Part shown: in pieces, positions 9,259 to 59,034 of the stretch
How the letters are laid out: the number at the start of each line of letters is the position of its first letter
Numbering within the stretch: the stretch's first letter is position 1
Source of the DNA: Acidobacteriota bacterium
GTDB taxonomy: Bacteria > Acidobacteriota > Holophagae > Acanthopleuribacterales > Acanthopleuribacteraceae
DNA: 64,000 nt
NCBI GenBank assembly: GCA_020637335.1
Contig: JACJWC010000005.1
Span: forward strand, 109,513 to 173,512
Direction of reading: 5' to 3'
Notes under the pieces: model-generated
Databases searched by the model: none
The model's input: the letters and a program-made list of their open reading frames with translations, nothing else
What the model was told of the DNA's origin: nothing
Made by a program: the position numbers and the translations under genes

Positions 9259-9423
9259 TTATTCCATTTTCCACCCTAGGCCCGAGCTTGAAAAGCAATA
9301 CTCCTGTATAAAAACTCATTTTTTAATAAAATATGGCCAACCATTTAGGAAGAAATTAATAATCCCTGATCGCGGAATCCCCGTAGTGTAAAGGCGGACA
9401 GAGTGTCCAAGTAAGGAGCATAT

Positions 9424-9915
9424 ATGAAAAGAAGTTTTTTGTTAGCCATTCTCATGAGCGCTGCATGCATTTGGGCTGGTGAGCCCGATTCAAATCAGCG
9501 CGGACGCTATTTAATTGTAATTGGTGGATGCAATGATTGTCATACACCGGGATATCCGGAGAGTGGCGGAAAAACACCCGAGTCCGATTGGTTGGTTGGC
9601 AGCCCAGTGGGCTTTCAAGGTCCATGGGGAACGACGTATCCGACCAATCTCCGCAATTCGGTCGCTCACCAAACCGAAGCTGAATTTTTGGCCAAAGCGC
9701 ACACCGCCATGCGGCCCCCTATGCCCTGGATTTCACTGGCAAACATGACGGACAGCGACTTAAAGGCCGTTTATCACTATATAAAATCGCTAGGTCCGAA
9801 GGGCCCTGACGCACCGGCATACAAAGCGCCGGGCGAAAACGTGGAAACGCCTTATTTTGAATTTGTACCCAAAAACCTGCCCCCAAGCGATGACCAGACA
9901 GGTGGTCAGCAATAA
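9424..9915 (+). CDS. Cytochrome c family protein (periplasmic)
   Basis: Signal peptide and a single CNDCH (CxxCH) haem-binding motif; 163 aa. Confidence 0.75.
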   Translation: MKRSFLLAILMSAACIWAGEPDSNQRGRYLIVIGGCNDCHTPGYPESGGKTPESDWLVGSPVGFQGPWGTTYPTNLRNSVAHQTEAEFLAKAHTAMRPPMPWISLANMTDSDLKAVYHYIKSLGPKGPDAPAYKAPGENVETPYFEFVPKNLPPSDDQTGGQQ

Positions 9916-9918
9916 ACA

Positions 9919-9947
9919 AGGGGAGTCAAGCGACTCCCCTTTCTATT
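9919..9947. terminator. Bidirectional terminator hairpin between convergent genes
   Basis: AGGGGAGTC(aagc)GACTCCCCT hairpin at 9919-9940 is followed by a T-rich tract. It sits between the cytochrome c stop (9915) and the methyltransferase stop (9951). Confidence 0.6.
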
Positions 9948-9950
9948 CCA

Positions 9951-10745
9951 TTAAGGTTTAACAAATTTGAGGGTCATGCGATCGCTTTCACCGATGGCTT
10001 TAAGCGCCTCAGCATCCAGTTCGCGTTCGTTATCGCCTTCTTTGACTTTGGTCGCCAAGCGCGGCGGCAGGGTCCAGACACCATTAGGGTGTTCGGTTGT
10101 ATCCTTAGGATTAGCATTAATTTCGGATTGGTCAACCAACTTAAAACCCGCCTTGGTGGCCAGGTCAATAACGGTTTGAACATGCACGTATCCCGAATCG
10201 GGGTCCGCAGCTTTATCGGCAGGACGGCGGTGTTCAACCACGCCCAAGATTCCACCCGACTTCAACGTTTTAAAAAACGCGTCAAAAGCCGGTTGGGCAT
10301 TGTCAGGCATCCAGTTGTGCACATTGCGGAAGGTTAGAACCATGTCCGCTTGACCCTCTGGCATTTCAATTTTTGTACCCGGTTGGAAAATGCACATTTT
10401 GACCTTGTCATACGCCTCGGGATGTGTGGCCAAAAGTGCCTGATATCCATCGTAGGAGCGTTTGTAGTAGCCGGTGGCGTCAGGCGCGGCATGTGCGGCA
10501 TAAAAGGTCCCCTTCTCGCGCAGGTAAGGTGCAAGAATTTCGGTGTACCAGCCACCGCCCGGTGAAATTTCCACCACAGTCATATCGGGCTTGATGCCAA
10601 AAAAAGCTAAGGTTTCAGCAGGATGACGATAGACATCACGGGCTTTGTTCTCGGGGCTGCGATGATCGCCATCAACAACCTTTTGAAGCATGGGATCCCC
10701 AGCCAACAGGCAGGTGGAAAGGAGCATCGGAAGCACAAAACGCAT
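9951..10745 (-). CDS. Secreted class I SAM-dependent methyltransferase
   Basis: Methyltransferase-fold motifs (VVEISPGGGWYTEILAP; GGILGVVEHR) are present. Start is chosen at the internal Met (MRFVLPMLLSTCLLAG, a signal peptide), which is preceded by the strong RBS AAAGAGGA. The listed 331-aa ORF has an implausible 67-aa N-terminal extension. Confidence 0.7.
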   Translation of the reverse strand: MRFVLPMLLSTCLLAGDPMLQKVVDGDHRSPENKARDVYRHPAETLAFFGIKPDMTVVEISPGGGWYTEILAPYLREKGTFYAAHAAPDATGYYKRSYDGYQALLATHPEAYDKVKMCIFQPGTKIEMPEGQADMVLTFRNVHNWMPDNAQPAFDAFFKTLKSGGILGVVEHRRPADKAADPDSGYVHVQTVIDLATKAGFKLVDQSEINANPKDTTEHPNGVWTLPPRLATKVKEGDNERELDAEALKAIGESDRMTLKFVKP

Positions 10746-10989
10746 AAAAATATCCTCTTTTATTGGGAATGGCGTTCTTTCCAACGGAACCCGTTCCCTT
10801 GGCAAAAGGCCAAATAAAGGGTGTTCGATCCGTTTGAAAGAGCAAATGACACCCGATCTTAACGTTTTTAAGGGCAAAAAGATTCCCTGTTTGTGGGTAA
10901 ACAGCAAAAAACAGCCTATTTCATGCAGCAAAAAGAAAAAAGCCACCCGTTGAAGGTGGCTAAAAGGTTAACCCTGAGGATTGGGTTGT

Positions 10990-11066
<77 letters not shown>

Positions 11067-11237
11067 ACAATTCGCAAAGGATACTTTTTTCGCGGCCAAC
11101 TGTCAAACTGAAAATGATCGGAGACGTGCAGAAACAAGCTTGCCTTCAAGCAAGTCCCGACAGGCAACGAATTCGCCCGGCCCTATGCGTTTAAGGGTAT
11201 GATGAATGGCACAAAAGCCGACTGAAGGTGGAGATGC

Positions 11238-12278: not shown

Positions 12279-14736
12279 TTTCCTGGCCTTTGCTGAGCAG
12301 GAAGCGCGTCGCTACGGCAATGACCCTTTTGTTTTTGTTCGGGAGTTAGTGCAAAACAGCCGGGATGCGGGCGCTTCCCAGATCAATTTTCAGTCTGAAA
12401 TGATTGGCCAAACCTATGTTTTGCGCTGCGCTGATGACGGTTGCGGGATGAATGCCGAACAATTACAGGGTTTCTTGCTCAAACTTTTCGCCAGCAACAA
12501 ACAAGACAATCAATTGGGCATGTTTGGGGTTGGATTTTGGTCCGTCCTGCTTTTTGAACCCGAAGCCATCTACATCGACACATGTACCGGGTCCGAGCGC
12601 CATGTGCTCAGCTATCAAAAAGGGTGGAGCCAGGCAAAATGTAAACCCATGGAACCGGGCCCGGCTGGGACTCAGATTATCCTGCACAAACAGGCGCCCA
12701 ACGGCGACCAATGGAGCCCTGACCTTTTTAAACGCCTGGTGTATTACTGTGGTTATGTGGTTCGGCTGGGTGGTGAGAACCCTAAAAACCCTATGCCCCT
12801 GCCCATTCGCTTCAATGGCCAGGCCATCAATCAATCCATGCAACTGAATGGCTTGACCTGGCAAGCCTGGCGCGGCAAACGGGCCTGGGGAGTGATTGGC
12901 TTGGGCGCAAACCCGCTTGTACGACTCTATAAAGCGGGCATTTTGATCAAAGAATGCACGAGCTTAAATGAGCTTTGGCCGTCTCGACCCGCCATCCTGC
13001 CTAAAGTGGAGGGATTTTATCCCCAAGTCTTGATCAATTGCGCGGATTTTAATTTATTGTTGGATAGGCACACCATTGCCGAAGATCATGCGCTTGCCCA
13101 GGTTTTGGATGCCTGTTCTCATCTCCTCAAAAAACAGGCAAAAAATCTACTCAATCAAATGGCGCCAATGGACCTGGTCAATGGGACGCGTTACCTGCTC
13201 ATGCGACAAGGTAAAAAGCTTTTATTCGCTCTTGTGGCCCTTTTAGTGGTGGGCTGGAGCGGATGGTTTTTGACCCAGCAAAAAGGACCTGTGCCAATTT
13301 CGAATCGTGGGGCCGAACCCCAAGCGACGCAGGACATTTCCGCTGTTTTGGACCGCTATCGGGGACCGATCGTCGATAACCCCAACAGCCACCCGCCGCG
13401 TTGGCAAGTCAGTTTGGAAGGACCGCGGAAGGTGGATCTGATTTTAGGCTTGGTCGATCAGTTTGACCGAGATCGCGGTTGGTTGCCACGACGGCCGGAA
13501 TCGGTCGGGCCGTACCCACCCATCGCAAATCCGGCTGATGGCATTTTGCGCATACGCTTACAAGACACCCGCTTGCCCATGATCCTGCCCTATCCGCTTT
13601 TGGGGGCCATTAAAGCCAATACGGTTCAACTCGATGGAAAACCGTTTGGTCAAGTCGGTCAGACGCGTGCGGGTGAACCGATGCTGTTAGGTTCTGGTGT
13701 AATTCAGGGTGAATTGAGTTATGCCTTCGTTCTCGATTATCCCAATTTGCAAATGCAACCGCCCCTGAGCCCACCTCGCTTAGCTTGGGACGCTGAATTT
13801 AAGGCCTGGTTAGATCAGGCGCCCCTTAGCAGTTCGGAGGCCAATGCTTATTGGGTTCCGCTCTTACAAAAACGATTTGGCCCACCTCAAGAAGTACAGC
13901 CGCGCGGGACCACGTGGTTGGAGCGAGCCCTATCCGTTCAAAATTCAGATTGCGATATGGTTAATGGGCTGCTCACACTGCTTTTCCTCGAACAAGGTTT
14001 CCAAGCCCGACTCGCATTGGGGTTGGTCATTTCGCAAGGTCCACAAACCAACCATTTACATGCCTGGACCCTGATCCAAACCGAACAAGGCTTTGTGGCA
14101 ACAGATGCTTCACATCCCAATTTCTCACCACTCGTTCCACCAGATCCAGCAGATTCCCTGGCGGCGCCAGCCGCAGGCGGAAATATGGAACGCCAATTGG
14201 CACCCAGCCAAGCCAGTCCCATCGTCGCGACACAAGCACAAACGCCCTTTCCCTGGCGTTGGATATGGCTAGGTCTTATCGCCCTGTTGATCCTGCTCTT
14301 ATTGCGATATGCCTGGAAAGTTAAACGGGCACAAAATTCCGTTCGGACCGAACAACTCGCTTTTGCCGGTCGCTGGTTAGCCATGGTGGTCCGCTCCGGT
14401 GATATGCACCACGATCTTTTTTACAGGCCTCTGTTTAGCCGAGCCGATGGGAAGCGCGTCAGCTTCTATACCGTACTGAAATGGGCAGAAAATGCACCTC
14501 TTCTAATGGGCACCCAAGTCGACCACGGGTCCATCCTGGATAAGAATTGTCCTATTTTGCGGCAACTCCTGCCTTATTTACCGGAGGTGCTCGATCGCAG
14601 CATGGGGTTTTCTACACCAGGCCCGGCAGAAACGGTTGAAGTTCGCCCAGGCACCGCCTTGTTATGGGGACCCACTTCAGATGGTTGGTTGCTTATTGCT
14701 GACGACGATCCAAAAAATCCGCAAACGCCTGTTTAA
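12259..14736 (+). CDS. Membrane protein with N-terminal HSP90-like GHKL ATPase domain and a transglutaminase-like domain between two TM helices
   Basis: Bergerat-fold motifs are present: ELVQNSRDAGAS (N-box ExxxNxxDA), DDGCGM (G1) and GMFGVGFWSV (G2, HSP90/MORC type GxFGVGFYS). Predicted TM1 is ~LLFALVALLVVGWSGWFL. The transglutaminase core reads C-x15-GFQARLALG ... HAWTLIQTEQGFVATDAS (Cys/His/Asp triad). Predicted TM2 is WRWIWLGLIALLILLLL, followed by a C-terminal tail of ~130 aa. Start is taken at ATG 12259 (MKMEAHD) rather than 12217; this overlaps the end of the channel gene by 20 nt. Confidence 0.6.
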   Translation: MKMEAHDFLAFAEQEARRYGNDPFVFVRELVQNSRDAGASQINFQSEMIGQTYVLRCADDGCGMNAEQLQGFLLKLFASNKQDNQLGMFGVGFWSVLLFEPEAIYIDTCTGSERHVLSYQKGWSQAKCKPMEPGPAGTQIILHKQAPNGDQWSPDLFKRLVYYCGYVVRLGGENPKNPMPLPIRFNGQAINQSMQLNGLTWQAWRGKRAWGVIGLGANPLVRLYKAGILIKECTSLNELWPSRPAILPKVEGFYPQVLINCADFNLLLDRHTIAEDHALAQVLDACSHLLKKQAKNLLNQMAPMDLVNGTRYLLMRQGKKLLFALVALLVVGWSGWFLTQQKGPVPISNRGAEPQATQDISAVLDRYRGPIVDNPNSHPPRWQVSLEGPRKVDLILGLVDQFDRDRGWLPRRPESVGPYPPIANPADGILRIRLQDTRLPMILPYPLLGAIKANTVQLDGKPFGQVGQTRAGEPMLLGSGVIQGELSYAFVLDYPNLQMQPPLSPPRLAWDAEFKAWLDQAPLSSSEANAYWVPLLQKRFGPPQEVQPRGTTWLERALSVQNSDCDMVNGLLTLLFLEQGFQARLALGLVISQGPQTNHLHAWTLIQTEQGFVATDASHPNFSPLVPPDPADSLAAPAAGGNMERQLAPSQASPIVATQAQTPFPWRWIWLGLIALLILLLLRYAWKVKRAQNSVRTEQLAFAGRWLAMVVRSGDMHHDLFYRPLFSRADGKRVSFYTVLKWAENAPLLMGTQVDHGSILDKNCPILRQLLPYLPEVLDRSMGFSTPGPAETVEVRPGTALLWGPTSDGWLLIADDDPKNPQTPV

Positions 14737-20563: not shown

Positions 20564-21715
20564 TCAGGGCCCGCGCCAAATTTCGATGCGGTTTTTACCT
20601 TTGGCCTTGGCTCGGTACATGGCCATATCGGCATGATGCAGCAATTCTTCAATACTCAGCGCCTGAGTTGGAAAAAGCGAAACACCGACACTGATGGTCA
20701 CATTGATGCGGAAATCATCGCCCAATAGCTCAGTCACTTCCAGCTTGAAGCGCAAATCCTCAGCCAATTCCTCTGCCCGGTCCATGCTGGTATTGGGCAG
20801 CGCAATAACAAATTCATCTCCGCCATAGCGGCACGCACATCCTGGACCTTCAAAATCGCGCAGTATGCCAGCGACCTCGGTTAAAACGCGGCTACCTACC
20901 AAATGGCCGTGTGAATCGTTGATCTTTTTAAAGAAATCAACGTCGAGGAAAAACAGGGCGAGCGGATTGTCCGAATCGGCTTCCTTGGCTTTGGCATCCA
21001 AATATTGGCGCAAGTAGCGCGAGTTATGCAGTTGTGTCAGGTCATCACGGCTGGAAAGATCCTGGATTCGTTCAAATAAAATAGCGTTTTCGATGGCGGT
21101 GGTGGCGTTGTGGCCAAACAAACCAAACAAGTTGAAGTGGTACTGGAAAAAATTGAGATGGGAAGTGGCCACGTAACTAAATAGCATTCCGAGCGGTTGT
21201 TTCCCGGAGTGGAGCGGGATCATGACCAAACTGCCCTCCTCCTGGGAATTGGGCGCAAAGAATGGAATCACAAAGGGTTCCAATTCAGTGCCTTCCACCA
21301 CTTTCTTGCCCAGGATGTGCTGCTCGATCTCCTGACAAAGCCACGTATCCTGAGAGGCTTGGCGACGCACCCAACTGGGTGGGTCAGACCATAGGTAAAT
21401 GGCGACATAATCGCTTTTCATGATTTCCGAAGCCACCCCAACAATGACCATCAGGACATTATCGATATCGCGAACCGGTCCGACTTGGCGCACCAGTTCC
21501 TGAAAGGTGATTAATTCCCGCAAATATTCCTGGAGTTGTTCCTCGGTGCTGAGCGAGCGGTTCAGATCGCGCACAAGGCTCTTGATCCGCTTGCGCAAAC
21601 GATAAATGTTTTTGCTCAGAAGATCGGCTTGTGGGTCTTGAAAGCGTATTCGATGCTCAAAACCTCCTTTTTCCAAGTCTTTGAGCAATGCCTGATAATA
21701 AGGCGGTTTTTCCAC
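20564..21715 (-). CDS. GAF-GGDEF diguanylate cyclase
   Basis: C-terminal RYGGDEFVIAL GGDEF active site with RxxD-type I-site context; N-terminal GAF-like region. Confidence 0.85.
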   Translation of the reverse strand: MEKPPYYQALLKDLEKGGFEHRIRFQDPQADLLSKNIYRLRKRIKSLVRDLNRSLSTEEQLQEYLRELITFQELVRQVGPVRDIDNVLMVIVGVASEIMKSDYVAIYLWSDPPSWVRRQASQDTWLCQEIEQHILGKKVVEGTELEPFVIPFFAPNSQEEGSLVMIPLHSGKQPLGMLFSYVATSHLNFFQYHFNLFGLFGHNATTAIENAILFERIQDLSSRDDLTQLHNSRYLRQYLDAKAKEADSDNPLALFFLDVDFFKKINDSHGHLVGSRVLTEVAGILRDFEGPGCACRYGGDEFVIALPNTSMDRAEELAEDLRFKLEVTELLGDDFRINVTISVGVSLFPTQALSIEELLHHADMAMYRAKAKGKNRIEIWRGP

Positions 21716-25294: not shown

Positions 25295-26083
25295 TTATGG
25301 GGAACGAAAGGCAACTTCAAAATCGGCAAAGGGGTCTTCACCTTGGGTCAATTCCGCCAAATCCGAGGCCGCTTTAATCTCTAAAGGCAAGGATAATGGA
25401 CCCAATTGATGTTGGGTTGAAAACCAGACCCCCTGTTGTTGTTGCCAGCCAGACCAGGTGGTCGGCACCCCGCCCAATGGGATGATTTGTACCCACATGC
25501 GCCAAAAAACAGGCAATCCGTCTGGCCCTAATGAAATGAGATAGGAGTCCCCAGGCGTAACTCCACCCGATTCAAAAGTAACTAAAATCGCAGGTCTGCC
25601 CTGCTCGTCCGTCGTCAGGCCATGAACCACTTCCGGCCCACTTAATGAACAAAAGGGATTTAACCAAAAGGAATCATTGATGAACCAGGCCCAGGCGTTT
25701 TTCAGGTCGACCTGGGCATCCAGTTCATCGACTTGACGCGAGCCTTCAAATACCCAGCCCTTGCGACTATCCAAATCCAAAAACACAGTTTTCTTCTCAA
25801 TGTAAGTGCGCAAGAAATGGCGTTTACGGTCCCAAAGATGCTGGCGTTGGCCTTTAAAAAGCCATGCAACTGCACCGACTTGTTGCCAGGCCTGACAGCC
25901 AATAACGTCTTCCAATTCCTGGATGGCTTGCCTAGCGGCGGGTCCGTGATTGGCCTGGGGCATTGGCCGGTCCAACATGCGGTAAAGCAGGGGGGCAATG
26001 ACGGCGATGCCCAATAGCATTGCTAAGAGGATCTTGTGCCAGCGTTTCAATTGCGCATCTCCAAATATTTTCAGGCGGTTCAA
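25295..26083 (-). CDS. Hypothetical membrane-anchored protein
   Basis: Single N-terminal TM (ILLAMLLGIAVIAPLL) followed by a Trp-rich soluble domain; no recognisable motifs. Confidence 0.4.
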   Translation of the reverse strand: MNRLKIFGDAQLKRWHKILLAMLLGIAVIAPLLYRMLDRPMPQANHGPAARQAIQELEDVIGCQAWQQVGAVAWLFKGQRQHLWDRKRHFLRTYIEKKTVFLDLDSRKGWVFEGSRQVDELDAQVDLKNAWAWFINDSFWLNPFCSLSGPEVVHGLTTDEQGRPAILVTFESGGVTPGDSYLISLGPDGLPVFWRMWVQIIPLGGVPTTWSGWQQQQGVWFSTQHQLGPLSLPLEIKAASDLAELTQGEDPFADFEVAFRSP

Positions 26084-26146
26084 ATTAAGTCAACGGTGCA
26101 ATTAACCGATATAGACAATCAGAATGCTACCTTATTGAGGCCAACG

Positions 26147-27298
26147 ATGCGTGCAAAATCCGCACATACGCTCGAAACCGATCCCTATCGCGCGGGCTTG
26201 GCGCTTGCAGACCAACTCAAACCGCTTGAGCCAGATGTTGTGATCCTATTTTCTTCAATCGATTACGGCGGTAGTGAGGAACTGCTTCAGGCCTTTTACG
26301 ATGTATTGGATGCTCCGGAACTGACCTTAATTGGATCTACAGGTGAAGGCTTTTTGGAGACAGGAAAAACAGCAGATATGGGGGCCTGCGCTTTAGGCTT
26401 GCATTTCGATCAAGAGATCCGTCATGCCATGGCTTGGCGCAGTGGTGTGTCCCAACACTCCTTTTCGGCCACTCAAGAAATGCTCGACGATTTAACCACG
26501 CAACTGGGTGAAAAGCCGGATTTGGCGATTTTATTAAGCGATTTCCATGCAGATGGTACCGAAATCGAACGAGCGATCCGCCAGTACGGCGTCCCCATCG
26601 TCGGGGGTTTTGCGGCTGACGACAACTTTGATATGAATACCTGTTACATTTACGCCAACCAAAAAGCCCAATCCGACGCAATAGTTGTCCTCGGACTCAA
26701 AGGTCCGCTCCAATTTGACATTCACCTCGCCCACAATCTGGAGCCTGTTGGCAAACCGGGTGAAGTCACCCAGGCCGACAAAACTTGGCTTGGCCAAGTG
26801 GATGGACAAGACGCCATGACGTTTGTCGAAACAGCGCTTGGACGACCGGTCAGTAAAGTGGATCAAGGCATCCTCACGCTTAATGTGCTTTCTGCAGATA
26901 ATCCAGAGAAAAAATATTTGAGATCAATTGTTCCTGATTTGCCAAGTGATTTAGAAGGATTTCACCTTTTTGGCGGCGTTCAGAAGGGCAGCCAAATCCA
27001 AGTTTGCATGGCCCATCCAGAGGAAGTTATTTCTGAGGTGTATCGCGTAGCAGAGACCTTGGAGCGTGGCAAATTTAAGCCCAAAGCGGGACTTATCTTT
27101 AGTTGTGCGGGCCGAAAACATTTACTGGGCAACGAAATCGAACACGAGGTTCGGGCAGTGCGCGATCGCCTCGGCCAGGATTTCTCGGTGGTCGGGTTTC
27201 CAACGTTTGGCGAAATCGGTCCCATTCGCACTCAAATGGGCTGGACTGAGTCATTCTTTCACAATATGACCTACGTTTTATTGCTGCTAGGTAATTAG
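26147..27298 (+). CDS. FIST-domain signalling protein
   Basis: FIST N/C domain-like sequence, immediately upstream of and 5 nt from a hybrid histidine kinase. Start is set at the internal Met (MRAKSAHTLE). Confidence 0.65.
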   Translation: MRAKSAHTLETDPYRAGLALADQLKPLEPDVVILFSSIDYGGSEELLQAFYDVLDAPELTLIGSTGEGFLETGKTADMGACALGLHFDQEIRHAMAWRSGVSQHSFSATQEMLDDLTTQLGEKPDLAILLSDFHADGTEIERAIRQYGVPIVGGFAADDNFDMNTCYIYANQKAQSDAIVVLGLKGPLQFDIHLAHNLEPVGKPGEVTQADKTWLGQVDGQDAMTFVETALGRPVSKVDQGILTLNVLSADNPEKKYLRSIVPDLPSDLEGFHLFGGVQKGSQIQVCMAHPEEVISEVYRVAETLERGKFKPKAGLIFSCAGRKHLLGNEIEHEVRAVRDRLGQDFSVVGFPTFGEIGPIRTQMGWTESFFHNMTYVLLLLGN

Positions 27299-27302
27299 AT
27301 CC

Positions 27303-29264
27303 ATGGTCGTTCGATTTATCAGCTCCTATACGAATCCACCGCCCGGTTTCTCCTTTTGCCAGCCGAAAAAACAGGATTTATTGCGCGGAACAGTCGTCCT
27401 GTTGACAACCGATGACATAAAAAATAGTGGGTTAATTGAATCGCTAAAACAGCGGATGATCGGAATCATCATCAGCCTGGGCAATACCCCTGATTCTGTA
27501 CAATGGGGTCCCAACCTCTGGTCCCTGACGGTCGAACCACATATGGTCGATCACCTTCACAAAGTGCTTCAAGGCTTTGCCGAGTCGCTTGAAAGCGCGG
27601 CCATTCAGCACAGTGACCGATATGGTCTGGAAAAAGAGGTAACCCGCCTCAAGGTGTTACTGGCCACCACCCGAAAACACTACAACAAAGTGACAGAAAA
27701 TCTGTCCAATCACGTTTCCCAAATTTCGGAACTCAACAGCAGCCTACAAGACCAATTGGCCCGGGTTCAGGCGGCAGAAAAAGCGCTAGCACGAAGCGAA
27801 GAAAATTTGTCCATCACCTTAAATTCCATTGGAGACGGTTTGATTACGGTGGATCATGATGGGCGCATCCAATTGATGAACCCCGTAGCCGCTCAGTGGA
27901 GTGGGGCGCCAGCAAAAGAGGCGATCGGCAAAAAGTTGTCTGAGGTATTCCAATTTTTTGATGGAAAAACATGGACTAATGATAGAAATACAGAGTCCTT
28001 GCCCAAATCATTTTTATTGGCCGGAAAGGATGGAAAAACGCGGAAAGTTGCCGTGACCGCGTCACCGCTTTCCCACCAATCGGCCAATCCGGATGGCCAA
28101 GTCTTAATCTTGCGCGATATGACCGAGCTTTTAGCCCTTGAAGAGCAATTACGTCAAAAGCAGCGCATGGATGCTATCGGCCAATTGGCAGGTGGGGTCG
28201 CCCACGACTTCAACAATATTCTAAATGGGATTTTGGGGTTCGCCGAACTGCTTCAAATCCAATTGCACGGCCGAGACCCCGAAAGCCATTATGTTCAGTC
28301 GATCCTCACTGCAGTAGAGCGCGCGGCTGGGTTGACCCATCAGCTACTTGCCTTTGCGCGCAAGAAAGTAAGTGAGAAAGTATCGATCAATTTACACACG
28401 CTGATTCAGGATACGGTCGAACTCGCAGTCCACACATTTGATCGACGGATTCACTTGCATTCCCACCTGGATGCCCAATTTGCCAATACGCGGGCTGAAC
28501 CCAGTCTGATCCACACCGTCTTTTTAAACCTCCTCATCAACGCGCGAGATGCCATGCCCGAAGGAGGTCACATTCGGGTCCGCACCCAAAATGTGCATTT
28601 TGATTCAACGACTTTTCAAAACTTGCAGGCCGGACAGTATATTCACGTGCAAATTGAAGATACGGGCCAGGGTATTGAACCCGAGCATATCGATAAAATC
28701 TTTGAACCGTTTTTTACCACCAAACCGCCGGATAAAGGCACGGGCTTGGGTCTTTCAGCCGTTTACGGCATCATGCACGATCACCAAGGCCTAATTCGGG
28801 TGGAAAGCATGTTGGGTACGGGCACCGTCTTCCACTTGTATTTCCCCATGAGTTTGGACGAGGAACCTATGGATGCCAAATCCAAACGCAGCAATATCGC
28901 CCAACATAGGATTCTTGTCGTGGATGATGAGGCCCCAATCCGCGAGTATCTGCGCATTGGTTTAGGTCGTTTTGGCTACCAAGTCATTCTGGCCCACAAT
29001 GGCCTACACGCCCTGGAACAGCTGGAACAGGATGCGCATTTCGATTGGGTCGTCATGGATTTGAATATGCCTGAAATGAGCGGGCATGAAACCATTCGCG
29101 TAATCAAACAGCGCTACCCACAATTGCGGGTCATCATCGCTTCCGGCTACCTGCAAGATTGGGAGTTGCGGGAACTCCAGCATCTCGGCGCCAATTCCGT
29201 TCTGCAAAAGCCGTTTCGCATCGAAACTTTGATGCAACACTTCCAACACCACGCCAATGACTAG
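27303..29264 (+). CDS. Hybrid sensor histidine kinase/response regulator (PAS-HisKA-HATPase-REC)
   Basis: A coiled coil is followed by a PAS domain ([24 protein letters not shown]), the HisKA H-box ([12 protein letters not shown]), N/G boxes ([10 protein letters not shown]; DTGQGI; GTGLGLS) and a C-terminal REC domain ([11 protein letters not shown]...DLNMPEMSG). Confidence 0.85.
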
Positions 29265-30865
29265 ACCCCTGGATCCGGTGCCTGAGCAAGGACTGCTTGT
29301 GGATCCAACCCAAATTTAGTCAGGTATTTGCGCAGGCGATCCGAATCGTTTTTGGATGCGCGACGCTGAATAGAGGAAGCAAACAAAATCCTGCCCGCCT
29401 CGGATAAGGTGCGACAACGGCTACACACTTCTAAAACCGTACGCAATTGGACCTGATCAAACAAATCCAAATCCTCGCGTTCTTGCTCAGAAAGAAACCG
29501 ACTCAGAATCGAATCCTCAACCGGGCTACCCTGCCAGTGTCGGTTCAAACGCTGGATCTCTTTTTGGACAACTGCCTCATTGATTCGCCCACTTGGTGCC
29601 AAGGTCGCCATCCGCTGAACTGCTGCATTCAGATCGCGGAAATTTCCCTTCCAACTGGCCTGCGGGTCCAAGGCGAATCTGAGAAATTGCTGATAGGCCT
29701 CTTTGTTGAAACGCACGTAACTTCCGTGCTTTTGCGCGTATTGTTCCAATTCGTACTGAAGATTGGGCTCAATATCTTCACGTCTATCGCGCAAGGGCGG
29801 TAAATCGAAACTCCAGGTATTGATACGCGCCAATAAATCGTCGCGGAAACGACCCTCGGCAACCTGGTGCCATAAATCGCGGTTCGTGCCCGCCAATAAC
29901 TGAAAATCGCTTTCAACCTCGCGGTCTCCGCCCAAAGGTAGGAAGCGGCCATCCTCCAATGCGCGCAATAACATGGCTTGTTCATCCAGACCTAACTCGC
30001 CAATCTCATCCAAAAACAAAACCCCGCGGTCCGCTTTGCGCAGCAAACCCGGCCGATCACTTAACGCGCCGGTAAATGCACCTCGCACATGGCCAAACAA
30101 AGTGGACATTGCGCCTTCACCCCGTATCGTTGAACAGTTGATCTCAACAAAATCGCCCGATACCATGCGCTTGGCTTTTTTGAGTTGAAATAGCCGTTTG
30201 GCCAATTTGCTTTTGCCGGCGCCTGTCGGCCCCATTAACAGGATCGGCAAACGCGACCGCATGGCCACTAATTCAATTTCCTCAATCATGTGGTTAAAAG
30301 CTTGGTTCCGAGTAGCAATGCCCGATTTTAAAAACTCCTGGCGATCCTCAAGTTCCTTCTGGAAACGCGAAGCAATTAGGTCATAGCGGCCCAAGTCCAA
30401 ATCGATCATGTGGGTCAAACCTGTCATTTGGCCTTTTTTCTTGCTCGGCGGCGAGGTTTGCACCAATTGACCTGGGAAATACCGCGCTTCAGTTAAAAGA
30501 AATAAGCAAATTTGAGCCACGTGGGTACCGGTAGTGATATGGATGTAGTAGGACTCGTTCTCCTCGTCGTAGTTCAAGCTTTTGGCAAATTGATAAAGCC
30601 CATTAAACACTTCTTCAAAATCCCAGGCATCTTGAAAGGTTAATTCCTCAAGGACCAGTTCAGTCTCTGGGGCACAGCTCTGAATATCTTGAATCAAGTG
30701 GCGCATATCGGCCTGATGCCGGCGGTCGTGTAACAAAATTAACCGATCAACCCGCCAATCCTCCTGCTGCACCAAGGTCAGGGTTGGCCGCCACTTCTCC
30801 CAACGTTTCCCCCCTCTTCCCGCATCGAGTACCGACCCATAAAACCCAATCACCACCGTTTTCAC
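29261..30865 (-). CDS. rtcR: Sigma-54-dependent transcriptional activator RtcR (CARF-AAA+-HTH)
   Basis: Near full-length collinear similarity to E. coli RtcR. The N-terminal CARF region matches (MKTVVIGFYGSVLD...RWEKWRPTL...DRLILLHD...YIHITTGTHVAQICLFLL). The AAA+ core has GPTGAGKS, GAFTGA and the ESELFGH equivalent (MSTLFGH). The C-terminal tail ends ...DRLRKYLTKFGL. Confidence 0.9.
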   Translation of the reverse strand: MKTVVIGFYGSVLDAGRGGKRWEKWRPTLTLVQQEDWRVDRLILLHDRRHQADMRHLIQDIQSCAPETELVLEELTFQDAWDFEEVFNGLYQFAKSLNYDEENESYYIHITTGTHVAQICLFLLTEARYFPGQLVQTSPPSKKKGQMTGLTHMIDLDLGRYDLIASRFQKELEDRQEFLKSGIATRNQAFNHMIEEIELVAMRSRLPILLMGPTGAGKSKLAKRLFQLKKAKRMVSGDFVEINCSTIRGEGAMSTLFGHVRGAFTGALSDRPGLLRKADRGVLFLDEIGELGLDEQAMLLRALEDGRFLPLGGDREVESDFQLLAGTNRDLWHQVAEGRFRDDLLARINTWSFDLPPLRDRREDIEPNLQYELEQYAQKHGSYVRFNKEAYQQFLRFALDPQASWKGNFRDLNAAVQRMATLAPSGRINEAVVQKEIQRLNRHWQGSPVEDSILSRFLSEQEREDLDLFDQVQLRTVLEVCSRCRTLSEAGRILFASSIQRRASKNDSDRLRKYLTKFGLDPQAVLAQAPDPGV

Positions 30866-31110
30866 ATGCGCCTACCTGGATAAATTCCGATAAATTAGGA
30901 TAGCATTTCTTAACTGTTTGGCTCCAGGAATATGGAAGCAACCTCGGGACGATTAGATCTAATCATATTATTTACAGTAGGTTAGATTAATTCGAAAACG
31001 GATTGGCATCGAGATTGCCCTATTAGTGGCGACAAACATGCTGGGGCCCGCTGGCGCAGCCGCATACGGTACTGCGTGCCGGGCATGGGTTCTGCCCCCA
31101 CTGTTTGACA

Positions 31111-31183
31111 CCAAAGATAGCTCAATTGGTAGAGCATTGAATTTGACATTCAAGTGTTGGGGGTTCGAGTCCCTCTCTGCACA
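31111..31183 (+). pseudogene. tRNA-like remnant (D-, anticodon- and T-arms intact, acceptor stem not complementary)
   Basis: D-arm GCTC-AATTGGTA-GAGC, anticodon arm TTGAA-TTTGACA-TTCAA (anticodon would be UGA with an unusual C37), and T-arm GGGGG-TTCGAGT-CCCTC are all present. The 3' acceptor strand TCTGCAC has no complement in the 5' strand CCAAAGA, where only the last 3 nt fit. The scaffold resembles tRNA-Trp/Thr. Confidence 0.35.
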
Positions 31184-31277
31184 CACAGGAAATTGGACAG
31201 ATAGGAGGAAGACGGAAGCAGACATCAACAGCTGGAGCAAACCCACTCAAAGAGCGGAGGCGTTTCAGGTCTGAAAC

Positions 31278-31293
31278 TGGCAAGTTGCCTGCG
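31278..31293 (+). promoter_or_regulatory. Candidate sigma-54 (-24/-12) promoter upstream of the SPFH gene
   Basis: TGGCAAGTTGCCTGCG compared with the consensus TGGCACG-N4-TTGCW. The GG and GC dinucleotides are at the correct 10-nt spacing. It lies ~150 nt upstream of the 31445 start and is divergent from rtcR. Confidence 0.35.
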
Positions 31294-31444
31294 GCAACTG
31301 GATACCGCCCATCAATAAAAAACGAATACTTGAGCTCGCACACGATCTCAACAAACGTTTTGGCTGAGGGCTTAAGGTTCGCCCCGCAATGAAACAGGAA
31401 GTTCAATCCGTCCGACTCTTATCTGTTCAGCAAAAGGAGTACAC

Positions 31445-32557
31445 ATGTTAAAGAGAATTCACATTGGCAAGTACGAACTGGGCCTGGTCTTCAAGAATCG
31501 AGATTTTCGCCAGCTGCTGAAGCCGGGAAACCACTGGCTGGGCATAAACCAGTCGGTGGATCGCGCTAACTTGATGGAAAGCCAGTTCAAGCATCGCGAT
31601 TTGGAAGTATTGGTTCGCGAACCTGAGCTGCAAAACCACCTGAAGGTTTTTCGCTTAACCGAGTCAGAACGTGCCTTGATTTGGGTTGAAAACCAGCTAC
31701 AGGACGTGGTTGGACCGGGTCTACACGCTTACTGGAAAGGACCAAAAACGGTTCACGTCGAGGTCTTTGATGCGGACAGTTACCAGTTCGAACATCCCAA
31801 AATTAACGCAATTCTTGCCTTTCCGGGCATTCACACCCATCTGATCTGGGACACGGTTCAAGCGCACGAACGCCGATTACTGTTTGTAAACGGGTCGTTA
31901 GAAAAGGTGCTTGATCCGGGCCGGCATGTATTTTGGCGCACAACCAAACAGCTGGACTGGACAACTTTGGACCTTCGGGATCAGATAGTCGATGTGGCCG
32001 GCCAGGAAATCATGACTGCGGATAAGGTTACATTGCGCATAAACCTGATGGTGGTGTACCGGATTGTGGATGTCCTCAAAGCGGGGACAAGCGTAGCGGA
32101 CCTGGGACAGGCGCTTTACCGAGAAGCTCAAATGGCGTTGAGAGCCGCTGTAGGAACACGAACATTAGATGCGCTTCTGGCCAACAAAGACGCGGTTGGG
32201 CCTGAAGTGGCAAAGGCATTAAGCGTTCGGGTTCTCGATTACGGCGTTAACGTTTTGAGTGTCGGCGTGCGGGACTTAATCCTGCCTGGCGATATGAAGA
32301 GCTTATTTAATCAGGTAACCGAAGCACAAAAAGCGGCCGAGGCCAACTTGATCAAACGTCGGGAAGAAACGGCAGCAGCCCGGTCTCAGGCCAATACCGC
32401 TCGACTCATGGCTGAGAACCCACATTTGATTCGTATGCGTGAATTGGAGGCGATTCAGGAAATTTTGAAGGGCAGCAAATCCACCTTCATATTTTCAGGG
32501 ACCACAATCGGCAACCAATTGCGCGACCTGATCCAACTCAACGAGTCCGAAAGCTAA
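31445..32557 (+). CDS. SPFH/Band-7 (stomatin/HflKC-like) domain protein with ~170-aa N-terminal domain and no TM segment
   Basis: The SPFH core (KVTLRINLMVVYRIVDVLKA...) is followed by a coiled coil (QVTEAQKAAEANLIKRREETAAARSQA). The N-terminal 170 aa contains no hydrophobic helix. Confidence 0.75.
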   Translation: MLKRIHIGKYELGLVFKNRDFRQLLKPGNHWLGINQSVDRANLMESQFKHRDLEVLVREPELQNHLKVFRLTESERALIWVENQLQDVVGPGLHAYWKGPKTVHVEVFDADSYQFEHPKINAILAFPGIHTHLIWDTVQAHERRLLFVNGSLEKVLDPGRHVFWRTTKQLDWTTLDLRDQIVDVAGQEIMTADKVTLRINLMVVYRIVDVLKAGTSVADLGQALYREAQMALRAAVGTRTLDALLANKDAVGPEVAKALSVRVLDYGVNVLSVGVRDLILPGDMKSLFNQVTEAQKAAEANLIKRREETAAARSQANTARLMAENPHLIRMRELEAIQEILKGSKSTFIFSGTTIGNQLRDLIQLNESES

Positions 32558-32561
32558 AAGA

Positions 32562-32596
32562 AGGGCCTTCCCTAGCGGGAAAGGTCCTTTTTTTTG
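32562..32596 (+). terminator. Rho-independent terminator after SPFH gene
   Basis: Imperfect hairpin AGGGCCTTCCC(tagc)GGGAAAGGTCCT followed by T8. Confidence 0.55.
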
Positions 32597-32698
32597 GTTG
32601 ATCCGATTGGAGCCCAATAGCACCAACCAAAAAATCTGAGCCCGGAGTCCTTCACTAATTTGACCTGCGGTACGATGAGGATCGAATAAGGGGGATAC

Positions 32699-34714
32699 GT
32701 GCACCAAATTGTATTGATCGACGATGATCCGATGGCGACCAAACCCTTGGCGAAAGCACTTTTAGGCCGAGGTTACCATGTCACGCTGTTTGACAACGGA
32801 AAAACAGCTTTGGAATATATCAAACACGAAAAACCCGCATTGGTTGTTTGTGACATGCTTCTGCCCGGTTTACATGGTCTGGATTTATTGCGTCAAATCA
32901 AAACCGCCCCGACCATGAAAGAAACCAAGGTCATCATGATCACCGCGGTCTATAAATCTCACCGCTACCGCAGTGAGGCCCAAGAGATGGGTGCGGATGC
33001 TTTTTTTCTGAAACCGATTGGGCTGGAGAATTTTGTCCAAACTGTTGTGGAAATGATTGGTGAAGTCGACACAGAAAAAATTTCCAGCGACAGCATCATC
33101 AGTGAATTACAGGAAGAATTTGAGGCTTATTTGCAAAATGCATTAGCCGAATTGCAAGAGTCACTGCGCCAAGTTGGCAAGCCAGTAAAGAAAAAATTGG
33201 CCTTGGAAAACTTGTGTTATTACGCCCATTCCCTGGCCGGTTCCGCCGGGAATTTTCACTACAATGCCGTCACCCAGCACGCCCGAATCCTGGACCACTA
33301 TGTTCAGGAACTCCAGGAAGGCGGGCGTGAATTGGAGGTAGATCACCTCACGGCTTTGGTTAAAAAAGTGGTCGAGGTAGCCGCTGAACGAGATCCCATT
33401 TCGGATCCCGAAACGGAGGCTGGTGAACCAGATGTCGAACCCGTGCGGTCATCCAACCGAGTAATTTTTTGGAGTACCAACCGCAATCTGGGCGAGCGGT
33501 TCGCAGAGATTGTTGCCCCTTTCCACTGGGTCTTTGTCCCGTGTTTTGATCACCAGGAATTGCAGGACGCCTTGGACCAAGGCGCCGAATATTGGGTGAT
33601 TGATTTGCCAGACAACCCCATTGAATGCAAAAAAATCTTTGCCCACATCCGCAAATTAGACCATTACACTGTACCGCGTTTGTTTCTGGCCCGGGACCCC
33701 TCCTTTGATACCGCATTGGAGTCGATCCGGCACAAATCGATCGCCATGTTGGCCAAACCGCTTTCCGCTCAGGCAATTACCGATTTTTTTGACCGTGAAG
33801 CGGCTTGGCATCGCGAACCCGGCAAGGTTTTGATCATTGATGACGACCCGCGATTGGCCAGCCATTACAGCCGAGTCCTGGCCGAAGCGGGCCTGTTCCC
33901 CAGCTATCTGACCCAGCCAGAACAGGCCATGGATTTTTTGGCCGATTTTCAACCGGATCTCATTTTAATTGACTGGTACATGCCCGAAATCTCGGGTTTG
34001 GAGTTGGCTCGAATCCTGCGCCAATCCAAGAGTTATCTGGGAATACCCATTGTATTCCTGACCGTCGAACAGAATCCCGAGCAACAGCTGCATGCACTTG
34101 ACGAGGGGGTCGATGCCTTTCTCAACAAACCAATCACAGATGCGGCACTGGTTCGCCATGTCAAGGGTCGGATTCGGCGCTTTCGTGAAATTCGCTCGGG
34201 CATTGTCAATGATGGCCTGACCGGCATTCTGAACCATGCGGCTGGCTTGGACCGCGTTCGATCCGAAATTAGCCGCGCGCAGCGCAACAAAAGCGCGTTC
34301 AGCCTCGCTTTAATAGACCTTGACCATTTCAAACAGGTCAACGACACGCATGGCCACCTGATTGGCGACAAAGTCATCAAAAGTCTATGCCACAGTTTGC
34401 GCAACCGACTGCGGCGTTCGGATATTTTGGCGCGCTATGGCGGTGAAGAGTTTTTGATCGGCTTACCCGAAACAGATGGCGAAACCGCGTTGCATGTTCT
34501 GGACCGCATCCGTGAGGAGTTCAGCCAGATAATGCAATTTAGCGAAGATCAAATTTTCCAGGCCAGCTTTTCTGGTGGTATTGCCAGTTGGCATGCCGAT
34601 CTGGACGACGCCCAACTCATCAACCAAGCCGACCGGGCGCTTTACCAAGCCAAACAAGCGGGTCGCAATTGTTTTCGCAACTTTGCACCCTCGGAGGGCG
34701 GCGCCTCCGATTGA
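32699..34714 (+). CDS. Multi-domain response regulator/diguanylate cyclase (REC-HPt-REC-GGDEF)
   Basis: GTG start with RBS AAGGGGGAT. REC1 has IVLIDDD...VVCDMLLPG. An HPt-like region carries YYAHSLAGSAGNF. REC2 has VLIIDDD...LILIDWYMP. The C-terminal GGDEF reads RYGGEEFLIGL. Confidence 0.85.
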   Translation: MHQIVLIDDDPMATKPLAKALLGRGYHVTLFDNGKTALEYIKHEKPALVVCDMLLPGLHGLDLLRQIKTAPTMKETKVIMITAVYKSHRYRSEAQEMGADAFFLKPIGLENFVQTVVEMIGEVDTEKISSDSIISELQEEFEAYLQNALAELQESLRQVGKPVKKKLALENLCYYAHSLAGSAGNFHYNAVTQHARILDHYVQELQEGGRELEVDHLTALVKKVVEVAAERDPISDPETEAGEPDVEPVRSSNRVIFWSTNRNLGERFAEIVAPFHWVFVPCFDHQELQDALDQGAEYWVIDLPDNPIECKKIFAHIRKLDHYTVPRLFLARDPSFDTALESIRHKSIAMLAKPLSAQAITDFFDREAAWHREPGKVLIIDDDPRLASHYSRVLAEAGLFPSYLTQPEQAMDFLADFQPDLILIDWYMPEISGLELARILRQSKSYLGIPIVFLTVEQNPEQQLHALDEGVDAFLNKPITDAALVRHVKGRIRRFREIRSGIVNDGLTGILNHAAGLDRVRSEISRAQRNKSAFSLALIDLDHFKQVNDTHGHLIGDKVIKSLCHSLRNRLRRSDILARYGGEEFLIGLPETDGETALHVLDRIREEFSQIMQFSEDQIFQASFSGGIASWHADLDDAQLINQADRALYQAKQAGRNCFRNFAPSEGGASD

Positions 34715-58020: not shown

Positions 58021-59034
58021 ATGCAACCCGTTCCCGCCCATCGGCTCAGTATTGCCCCCATGATGGCTTACACGGACCGGCACTTTCGCTGGTTAATGCG
58101 GCTGTTCACCCAAAAGTCGCTGTTGTACACCGAAATGGTTGTGGCCAATACCTTGCACTATCGTCCAGAGCCGGATCACCACGAACTGCTTTTGGGCTTT
58201 GATCCCATCGAACATCCCCTGGCAGTTCAATTGGGCGGGGACGCCCCCGAAAGCTTGGTTCCGGCAGCCATCCAATGCCAGCAACGCGGCTATGATGAGA
58301 TCAACCTGAATGTGGGCTGTCCTTCGGACCGGGTCCAAAAAGGCCGGTTTGGCGCCTGCCTCATGCTGGAACCCGAGCATGTTGGCGACCTTTTAGCCCA
58401 AATGCGCGGAGCAGTTGATATTCCAGTGACGGTCAAACACCGGCTGGGTGTTGATGAACAGGACGACCTGGATTTTTTGATGCGGTTCGTTGAAGTGGTC
58501 GCACGAAAAGGGACCCAGGTATTTATTGTTCATGCCCGAAAAGCCTGGCTTTCCGGGTTGAGTCCGGCGCAAAACCGCTCGATTCCACCACTACTCTATG
58601 AACGGGTTTATGAATTAAAACGTCATTTTCCAGAACTGACCATCGTTATCAACGGCGGTATTACGACGTTGCAGGAAGTAAAACAACACTTACAACATGT
58701 AGACGGTGTCATGATTGGCCGGGCTGCCTATCAGAATCCTGAACTGTTTTGGCAGGCCGACCATGTTGTTTATGGTGCTCCGCTCAAACCGCAGCTGGAT
58801 TGGCTGCCCATTTTGGCCTCCGCTCAAACCTATTTTCGCGAACAAGTCGCACAAGGCACCAAAGCCAGCCACTTCTTAAAACATCTGCTCGGATTCTTTA
58901 AAGGCCGACCGGGCAGTCGCCATTGGCGACACGCGCTGACGATCGCCATTCAACAGGGCCAGCAGGATGTCAACTTAGCCGAGTTGTTCGGGTCAACCAT
59001 TGGCCAGGCTGAAAACCTTGCCATTACCGGTTAG
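58021..59034 (+). CDS. dusA: tRNA-dihydrouridine(20/20a) synthase DusA
   Basis: RLSIAPMMAYTDRHFRWLMRL N-terminal DusA signature, a TIM-barrel FMN-binding motif and the catalytic Cys (LNVGCPS). Confidence 0.85.
   Translation: MQPVPAHRLSIAPMMAYTDRHFRWLMRLFTQKSLLYTEMVVANTLHYRPEPDHHELLLGFDPIEHPLAVQLGGDAPESLVPAAIQCQQRGYDEINLNVGCPSDRVQKGRFGACLMLEPEHVGDLLAQMRGAVDIPVTVKHRLGVDEQDDLDFLMRFVEVVARKGTQVFIVHARKAWLSGLSPAQNRSIPPLLYERVYELKRHFPELTIVINGGITTLQEVKQHLQHVDGVMIGRAAYQNPELFWQADHVVYGAPLKPQLDWLPILASAQTYFREQVAQGTKASHFLKHLLGFFKGRPGSRHWRHALTIAIQQGQQDVNLAELFGSTIGQAENLAITG

Follow-up and report, generated by a model that had tools for sequence, protein, structure and literature searches.

Within a 64,000-nucleotide stretch of an Acidobacteriota genome (contig JACJWC010000005.1), hereafter called the window, a gene for the RNA-repair regulator RtcR stands divergent from a predicted sigma-54 promoter, a structured leader RNA with a tRNA-like domain, and a gene for a slipin of the SPFH (Band-7) family. 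The window pairs an RtcR sensor with an RNA-slipin module and nothing else, and such a form, lacking both the ligase RtcB and the cyclase RtcA, is unusual. RtcR belongs to a small group of bacterial regulators for which sensing of damaged tRNA is known; in Salmonella, tRNA halves or nicked tRNAs that carry a 2′,3′-cyclic phosphate activate its CARF domain (PMC7790460, PMC10159003). The original prediction for this stretch had proposed that the RtcR regulon was rewired from RNA repair to a membrane-scaffold or second-messenger output. The comparative analysis described here leads elsewhere: the tRNA-like element and the SPFH protein are an already predicted RNA-repair accessory module, not a membrane or cyclic di-GMP (c-di-GMP) rewiring.

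RtcR, its divergent promoter and the slipin gene

The rtcR gene (29261–30865, minus strand) encodes a CARF-type RtcR domain, a sigma-54 AAA+ domain and a C-terminal DNA-binding region. Pfam assigns the N-terminal domain to PF06956 (RtcR) at 251 bits over residues 2–182 and the AAA+ domain to PF00158 (Sigma54_activat) at 158.6 bits, and the GAFTGA motif is readable in the translation. The NCBIfam equivalog NF038308 (RNA_repair_RtcR) covers residues 1–524 at 767 bits, against a cutoff of 650; the protein is 59% identical to E. coli RtcR, and 52 columns are invariant across seven RtcRs that include the E. coli sequence. The window RtcR is a true, full-length orthologue, as first proposed, with the Pfam matches, the equivalog score and the identity to E. 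coli RtcR all bearing this out. The reported absence of rtcB and rtcA from the 64 kb holds as well: tblastn with E. coli RtcB and RtcA and ten diverse RtcB and RtcA sequences from related loci reached at best ~25 bits, and Pfam scans of ~36 open reading frames (ORFs) of the window returned no RtcB, RTC, TROVE, Hen1/Pnkp or other RNA-repair domain, nor RpoN, the scanned ORFs being otherwise ordinary metabolic and signalling genes. The same RtcR-slipin arrangement was seen on three independent contigs, with near-identical copies from independent samples.

The stretch from 30866 to 31444 separates rtcR from the slipin gene. A predicted −24/−12 promoter, TGGCATCGAGATTGC, lies at 31004–31018 on the plus strand, with a transcription start predicted at ~31030. 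It is the sole match to TGGCAY-N5-TTGC in the 64 kb, both strands scanned; the rtcR start codon is 139 nt away, and the tRNA-like element lies ~105 nt downstream. The sigma-54-like element noticed earlier on the divergent side is thereby confirmed as a unique consensus match. For an activator site, a repeat search offered a weak candidate: an imperfect inverted repeat (CGATTAGATCTAA / TTAGATTAATTCG, 30950–30994, unstranded) with 13-nt arms of 77% complementarity, located between rtcR and the promoter, which is possibly the RtcR upstream activator site.

The slipin gene (31445–32557, plus strand) is preceded by a Shine-Dalgarno AAGGAG at ~31433–31438 and encodes a protein of 370 amino acids that matches Band_7 in Pfam at 102.8 bits. 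Because the highest 19-residue Kyte-Doolittle (KD) window of this protein is 1.22, no transmembrane (TM) segment is predicted, and the description of an SPFH/Band-7 protein without one stands; among its homologues, only 6 of 121 have a 19-residue window at or above the TM threshold (KD 1.6). A membrane-anchored scaffold of the stomatin/HflKC type was considered and rejected, given the lack of a TM segment or hydrophobic hairpin and flanks occupied by RtcR and a GGDEF regulator, with no NfeD. In an AlphaFold2 model with a predicted local distance difference test (pLDDT) score of 88.3, the N-terminus is all beta: three tandem beta-rich repeats of ~65 residues each, the third of which corresponds to the N-terminal part usual in SPFH domains, lead into an SPFH core and then a ~60-residue C-terminal helix. 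The best structural matches are stomatin, HflK/C, prohibitin and QmcA, all ring- or cage-forming SPFH proteins, and the longest structural alignment is to the major vault protein (MVP). Since the closest structures form rings or cages and the slipin has no hydrophobic segment, it is reasonable to model the protein as a soluble oligomeric ring or shell that would bind the co-encoded RNA.

Protein searches returned thousands of slipin relatives at ~50–55% identity, mostly from Planctomycetota/Phycisphaerae and Acidobacteriota. No slipin homologue was found in 50,697 phage records that were searched with a phage origin in mind, and matches in a plasmid collection were distant (~35% identity) and on chromosome-sized replicons. 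Distant slipins of ~35% identity occur on some E. coli, Citrobacter and Burkholderia replicons. In the one such locus examined, that of E. coli STEC639 (L170; CP061233.1, 611814–613738), a slipin gene followed by a nucleotidyltransferase-domain gene lies between a DUF3811 gene and lysC. The covariance models R1 and R2 described below found no leader RNA at this locus, only a T-arm-like hairpin, UGGGUUCGAUUCCCA (L170 6813–6827), and because nothing more lies upstream the distant E. coli branch seems to use a different RNA.

A structured leader RNA ahead of slipin genes

The sequence between promoter and slipin gene is predicted to fold into three RNA domains, all on the plus strand. The 5′ hairpin domain (31042–31096), obtained from RNAalifold and pair counts on 23 loci, comprises helices P1 (31048–31050/31086–31088), P2 (31052–31054/31079–31081) and P3 (31055–31060/31071–31076) and has a conserved GTTCTG tail. 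The tRNA-like domain, or putative b7a-tRNA (31109–31182), was delimited with the Rfam tRNA model and the covariance model R1. The 3′ multi-helix domain (31204–31419) is bounded by a closing helix (31204–31212/31411–31419) and contains the conserved motif GCCTGCGGCAACTGGATACCGCC at ~31288–31310. In the window the Rfam tRNA match scores 47.2 bits (31115–31178, plus strand, model positions 5–66 of 71), R1 scores 76.9 bits on the tRNA-like domain and R2 scores 40.5 bits on the 5′ hairpin; from 30700 to 31600, Rfam 15 gave no family but tRNA at E-values up to 10. The D arm, anticodon arm, variable loop and T arm of the tRNA-like domain are intact and its elbow nucleotides are conserved, while the acceptor stem has 3 bp in the window and 4 bp in the family, and the anticodon loop reads UUUGACA, with a C instead of a purine at position 37. 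A canonical tRNA gene is ruled out by the truncated acceptor stem, the partial Rfam match, C37 and the lack of an ARAGORN tRNA call for the window element. Identity with YrlA or a Y RNA was also rejected: YrlA, encoded beside rsr, carries a circularly permuted T-acceptor-D module on a stem that binds Ro60, whereas the window element has the normal D-anticodon-T order, and the window encodes no TROVE protein.

The slipin sample, drawn from a scan of species-representative genomes, comprised 80 loci; in 74 of them the upstream sequence was 750 nt or longer. A profile based on sequence only placed a tRNA-like element upstream of the slipin gene and on its strand in 62 of these 74 loci, ending 295–689 nt (median 441) ahead of the slipin start in the 62, and the covariance model added further cases. 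R2, a model of the 5′ hairpin alone, matched in 65 of 84 sources, always at a single site per locus, on the slipin strand and directly before the slipin-proximal tRNA-like element, with no off-target match in 1.27 Mb. The leader RNA precedes slipin genes in 62–65 loci from at least five phyla, namely Planctomycetota, Acidobacteriota, Desulfobacterota, Verrucomicrobiota and Omnitrophota. The original prediction had called the window element a tRNA-like remnant; its presence in 62 of 74 loci makes it instead a conserved partner of the slipin gene, and conservation and covariation across phyla rule out a tRNA remnant or integration-site scar.

The consensus of the 5′ hairpin, from 23 loci in five phyla, has P1 as CCR/YGG (13 A-U, 9 G-C), P2 as CGG/CCG, a covarying P3 and a GTTCTGA tail, and it sits 19–48 nt upstream of the tRNA-like domain, in which all variable stems covary. 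Pairing holds in 96.8% of cells across these two domains, as compared to 28–46% in slid controls, and compensatory changes occur in 18 of the 30 pairs. The 3′ domain folds as a long-range multi-helix structure from the 260–590 nt that separate the tRNA-like element from the slipin start; for 19 loci RNAalifold gives 34 predicted pairs, of which 27 show compensatory changes, and 84% of cells pair versus 37–49% with partners slid. These comparisons strongly support a conserved, covarying structured RNA of ~400 nt (about 415 nt in the window) composed of three domains. The structure emerged by comparative analysis only; when 31020–31300 was folded by minimum free energy alone, no signal appeared (z = 0.35). 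The idea of a small spacer ORF (motifs CSAWIP, VVRGYRF and DRSNSTP) was tried and discarded, for the same nucleotide motifs fall in different reading frames in different loci; because the frames differ, what the spacer conserves is RNA and not a peptide.

The slipin-proximal elements combine hypervariable anticodon loops with an invariant U33, invariant elbow nucleotides of the D and T loops and an invariant D stem. ARAGORN left 18 of the 62 elements uncalled, assigned 6 a 2- or 4-nt or stop "anticodon" and 9 an A34, and its 38 calls included 22 different anticodons. Non-canonical cases include His-AUG, Phe-AAA, Asn-AUU, Val-AAC, a "stop" UUA and anticodons of 2 or 4 nt, and elements with hypervariable loops are distributed from L002 to L086 (for example, L083 9540–9604, L084 9522–9590 and L068 158–223). 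We infer that hypervariable, often non-canonical loops fit a target-mimic role better than decoding. Several loci also have a U-rich tract right after the closing helix of the 3′ domain (for example, L035, GGCCTTTTTTTT; L040, L043 and L053; alignment columns ~500–520), which suggests that a leaky intrinsic terminator could free the leader as a separate RNA of ~400–550 nt. The window tract, CUCUUAUCUGUU at ~31415–31426, is weaker than those of other loci.

Genomic contexts of the leader-slipin unit

Where slipin and RtcR share a locus, the gene order is RtcR (divergent), sigma-54 site, leader RNA and slipin, with RtcB/RtcA usually before or after. This order was found at loci L014, L019, L057, L064 and L085 of the genome scan and at L104, L127, L133, L141, L155, L167 and L168 of an RtcR-centred metagenome scan. 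For example, in the relatives L104, L127, L133, L155, L057, L019 and L014, RtcR and the sigma-54 site are accompanied by RNA-slipin-RtcA/RtcB or by slipin-RtcB-RtcA. Phycisphaerae loci have the order RtcB...RtcA-RNA-slipin. In the first three slipin contexts, a gene-free gap of ~900 nt to 1.7 kb upstream of the slipin contained tRNA-like matches, and in one of the three RtcB and RtcA lay just upstream. Of 15 RtcR-linked loci, 10 have a strong sigma-54 match at a distance of 107–256 nt upstream of the tRNA-like element, versus none of 56 slipin loci without RtcR. Because sigma-54 sites track the RtcR-linked loci and the window holds a unique consensus match, RtcR and sigma-54 very probably drive transcription of the RNA-slipin unit.

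A second sample consisted of the 80 RtcR loci closest to the window CARF domain and is biased to enterobacterial sequences. RtcB and/or RtcA was present at all 32 of its loci with at least 6 kb of divergent-side sequence. The minimal form, with RtcR, leader and slipin and no rtcBA, was found elsewhere at one locus only (L071), on the Limisphaerales chromosome OZ245740.1, where the neighbours are unrelated transporter and sugar-metabolism genes.

Several individual loci depart from these arrangements. In Desulfogranum japonicum DSM 18378 (L072) the leader-slipin unit (9271–11095, plus strand) is tail-to-tail with rtcR (12752–14332, minus strand) and a sigma-54 site at 14500 precedes rtcB-rtcA, so that the slipin adjoins the RtcR-divergent operon and stays outside it. 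L090 has RtcA and no RtcB within 10 kb. L154 carries three tandem tRNA-like matches (1894–2274, minus strand), and the 4.4 kb on its divergent side lacks RtcB, RtcA and slipin. L109 has, all on the minus strand, RtcR at 1963, a 5′ hairpin (1632–1724), a tRNA-like element (1550–1614) and RtcA (9–602); RtcA comes within ~950 nt after the leader RNA and there is no slipin match, and the RNA may here precede a different or very divergent protein.

A further arrangement involves tRNA arrays. With 10 kb upstream scanned, 15 of 74 slipin loci, mostly from Planctomycetota, had 9–36 ARAGORN tRNA genes on the slipin strand, in an array that ends at the leader RNA (L008, L009, L010, L032, L039, L051, L053, L055, L056, L059, L061, L066, L067, L073 and L086). 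In these loci only the last, slipin-proximal element has the 5′ hairpin domain. Adhaeretor mobilis HG15A2 (L073), for example, is arranged RtcB-RtcA-30 tRNAs-leader-slipin. Neither SPFH proteins nor slipins are mentioned in the published account of long tRNA arrays (PMC8421152).

A putative RNA-damage response cassette

SPFH/Band-7 modules with "a novel tRNA-like molecule" are said to have been put forward as scaffolding cofactors in the 2016 abstract of Burroughs and Aravind. In a passage on that work, Wang et al. (bioRxiv 10.1101/312249) describe a Band-7 protein and a b7a-tRNA predicted beside RtcB; as given in that passage the module is a prediction only, proposed as an RNA-ligation cofactor like Rsr with its Y RNA. 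The window shares with it an SPFH protein, a tRNA-like noncoding RNA immediately upstream on the same strand, and relatives that lie in RtcB neighbourhoods. It differs in having no RtcB or RtcA within ~30 kb on either side, and in an RNA that, with its 5′ hairpin and 3′ multi-helix domain, is far larger than a tRNA. On balance we consider it likely that this is a Band-7/b7a-tRNA cassette in minimal form under RtcR control, serving in an RNA-damage response.

Known systems offer several parallels to such a cassette. The rtcR / rsr-yrlBA-rtcBA locus of Salmonella likewise has RtcR divergent from a sigma-54 operon with an RNA-binding scaffold protein and a tRNA-mimicking noncoding RNA, but the scaffold there is TROVE/Ro60 and here SPFH, and the window lacks ligase and cyclase. 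E. coli rtcR-rtcBA has an orthologous RtcR and a divergent sigma-54 promoter whose outputs are RtcB and RtcA, in contrast to RNA and slipin in the window. In P. aeruginosa the SPFH gene PaFlo8 (PA14_60630) is situated inside an rtcR-rtcB-rtcA locus, with RtcB and RtcA alongside, and it is likened to the window slipin by SPFH type and rtc locus only. In Anabaena the repressor TrcR co-controls, by co-derepression, rtcB, the slipin gene alr0740 and a long tRNA operon (PMC10272220, PMC8421152). There too rtcB, a slipin-family gene and extra tRNAs are co-induced under stress, much as many slipin loci cap tRNA arrays; however, TrcR takes the place of RtcR and sigma-54, and the papers report neither a tRNA-like leader nor a linkage of slipin and array. 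The resemblance of slipin and RNA to the eukaryotic vault (MVP, vault RNA and the TROVE-domain protein TEP1), like that to Rsr and Y RNA, is analogy only.

In a cassette of this kind, following established RtcR biology, tRNA damage would produce cyclic-phosphate tRNA fragments that activate the CARF domain and cause RtcR to oligomerise. Activated RtcR would then open the sigma-54 promoter at 31004–31018, and a transcript of ~1.5 kb would yield the structured RNA and the slipin together. As the SPFH fold suggests, slipin subunits may associate by way of their long C-terminal helix to build a soluble ring or cage, and the oligomers might, more speculatively, bind their cognate tRNA-like RNA to give a ribonucleoprotein (RNP). 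Such an RNP could scaffold, present or hold broken tRNAs for a ligase encoded elsewhere or, alternatively, imitate tRNA and so decoy or sequester anticodon nucleases; both roles are speculative. Either way the module would work here with no co-encoded RtcB or RtcA, and it is probably a direct RtcR output that is useful on its own. A bolder proposal, which we advance only tentatively, is a self-sufficient, ligase-independent RNP in which a soluble, vault-like SPFH cage holds a ~400-nt RNA of an undescribed class, often capping long stress-induced tRNA arrays, whose tRNA-like domain bears a hypervariable anticodon loop specific to each lineage; such an RNP would shield translation by decoying or sequestering anticodon nucleases or by caging damaged tRNAs, and not through RNA repair.

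Several observations weigh against the cassette interpretation. In approximately 65 of the 80 slipin loci, RtcR, RtcB and RtcA are all missing within 10 kb, and because of this a tie to RNA ligation is not obligatory; judging from its gene neighbourhoods, the RNA-slipin unit stands by itself as a module and is coupled only in some cases to RtcR, RtcB or RtcA. Five of the 15 RtcR-linked loci lack a strong sigma-54 match under the strict filter, which demands at least 9 of 11 specified −24/−12 bases. Several 3′-domain pairs are mismatched in the window itself, making its fold less certain than the family consensus. Deletion of PaFlo8 had no phenotype in standard assays. Finally, we infer promoter activity, co-transcription of leader and slipin, and RNA-protein binding from sequence.

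What is new at this locus is the ligase- and cyclase-free RtcR cassette and, incidentally, the extended architecture of the RNA, the protein's vault-like layout and the association with long tRNA arrays. By isolating the accessory RNA and SPFH module from ligase and cyclase, the cassette offers a clean genetic system for the function of Band-7 proteins and b7a-RNAs. The larger covarying RNA, the vault-like domain order and the array-terminating unit, side findings in themselves, turn the 2016 prediction into a testable RNP hypothesis, and cultured carriers exist, for example Adhaeretor mobilis HG15A2 (L073), Lacipirellula limnantheis I41 (L051), Sulfidibacter corallicola M133 (L022) and Desulfogranum japonicum DSM 18378 (L072).

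A substantial possibility, if one falling somewhat short of an even chance, is that rtcBA has relocated, as the original prediction also allowed. RtcB and RtcA would then reside at another locus with their own RtcR-dependent sigma-54 promoter, the cassette here would be the portion of a split rtc regulon left beside rtcR, and the slipin and b7a-RNA would serve only as a cofactor of the distant ligase. This is compatible with a ligase-presenting role of the RNP and rivals only the idea of a module acting alone. It would agree with the 32 of 32 RtcR loci that carry RtcB and/or RtcA, with the slipin-containing RtcR operons, which carry RtcB too wherever there is enough sequence, and with Anabaena, where rtcB and the slipin gene are unlinked yet co-regulated. 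However, the window retains no RtcA or RtcB remnant that would mark a recent rearrangement, the same cassette of two genes plus RNA occurs independently in Limisphaerales, surrounded by housekeeping genes, and most slipin/RNA units have no rtc gene within 10 kb, which argues that the module can act alone.

It is rather unlikely that the RNA is instead a cis-regulatory leader, that is, a slipin 5′ untranslated region serving as sensor or bait for tRNA-directed nucleases or tRNA-binding factors, whose cleavage or binding would control slipin translation or make more cyclic-phosphate ligand for RtcR. The RNA does always lie directly upstream of the slipin on the same strand, it pairs a hypervariable anticodon loop with a conserved U33 and conserved elbow nucleotides, and the known RtcR ligands are tRNA 5′ halves with a cyclic phosphate (Hughes et al. 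2020, PMC7790460). However, the closing helix ends ~25 nt before the Shine-Dalgarno (up to ~150 nt elsewhere) and does not sequester it, the U-rich tract after that helix in several loci suggests a separable RNA, and Rsr provides a precedent for a protein co-encoded with the Y RNAs that it binds.

Very improbable, by comparison, is the initial view that the output of RtcR was rewired to a membrane-microdomain scaffold, to c-di-GMP through a GGDEF gene, or to both. The gene in question (32699–34714, plus strand) encodes a response regulator whose REC-HPt-REC-GGDEF domain order, as first described, is upheld by Pfam. It begins 141 nt downstream of the slipin gene on the same strand, and the hairpin between them is weak, which leaves read-through possible. 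This terminator-like hairpin, TTCCCTAGCGGGAA then AGGTCCTTTT (32568–32591, plus strand, with the hairpin itself at 32568–32581), came from a consensus scan that found 9 such hairpins in this 6 kb against 8.9 expected in shuffled sequence; because they are not enriched, the statement that the regulator follows a terminator is not established. No other fetched slipin locus has a GGDEF homologue beside the slipin, and the regulator appears to be an unrelated neighbour, with no comparative support for the second-messenger output once suggested. A membrane-scaffold output fares no better, since the slipin has no TM segment, hydrophobic hairpin or other membrane anchor and since an SPFH protein with a tRNA-like RNA is a predicted RtcB-linked module. 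Nor has the locus left RNA repair: in relatives the slipin sits in canonical RtcR-slipin-RtcB/RtcA operons, and this recurrence of the slipin-RNA unit inside RNA-repair operons means that synteny already largely refutes the rewiring. A decaying locus, in which a former rtcR-slipin-rtcBA operon is being lost and the tRNA-like element is a pseudo-tRNA or integration scar, would accommodate the missing rtcBA, the 3-bp acceptor stem and the mismatched 3′-domain pairs, but is hardly credible when neither RtcR nor slipin is shortened and both match the scores of their orthologues, the sigma-54 site and every RNA motif specific to the family are kept, the truncated acceptor stem is a family feature, and near-identical copies come from independent samples.

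The surroundings of RtcR are rich in signalling genes. A FIST-domain protein and a PAS-HisKA-HATPase-REC hybrid kinase are encoded nearby (26036–29264), the stop of the hybrid kinase gene overlapping the rtcR stop by 4 nt in a convergent arrangement, and a second GGDEF protein is encoded at 20564–21715. The downstream REC-HPt-REC-GGDEF regulator may be grouped with these signalling genes and not with RtcR. The window also contains genes for a dihydrouridine synthase, Dus (58021–59034), and an RluA-type pseudouridine synthase (87–818), both of which are probably housekeeping; it is worth noting that YrlA's tRNA-like domain is a known substrate of modification enzymes of these types.

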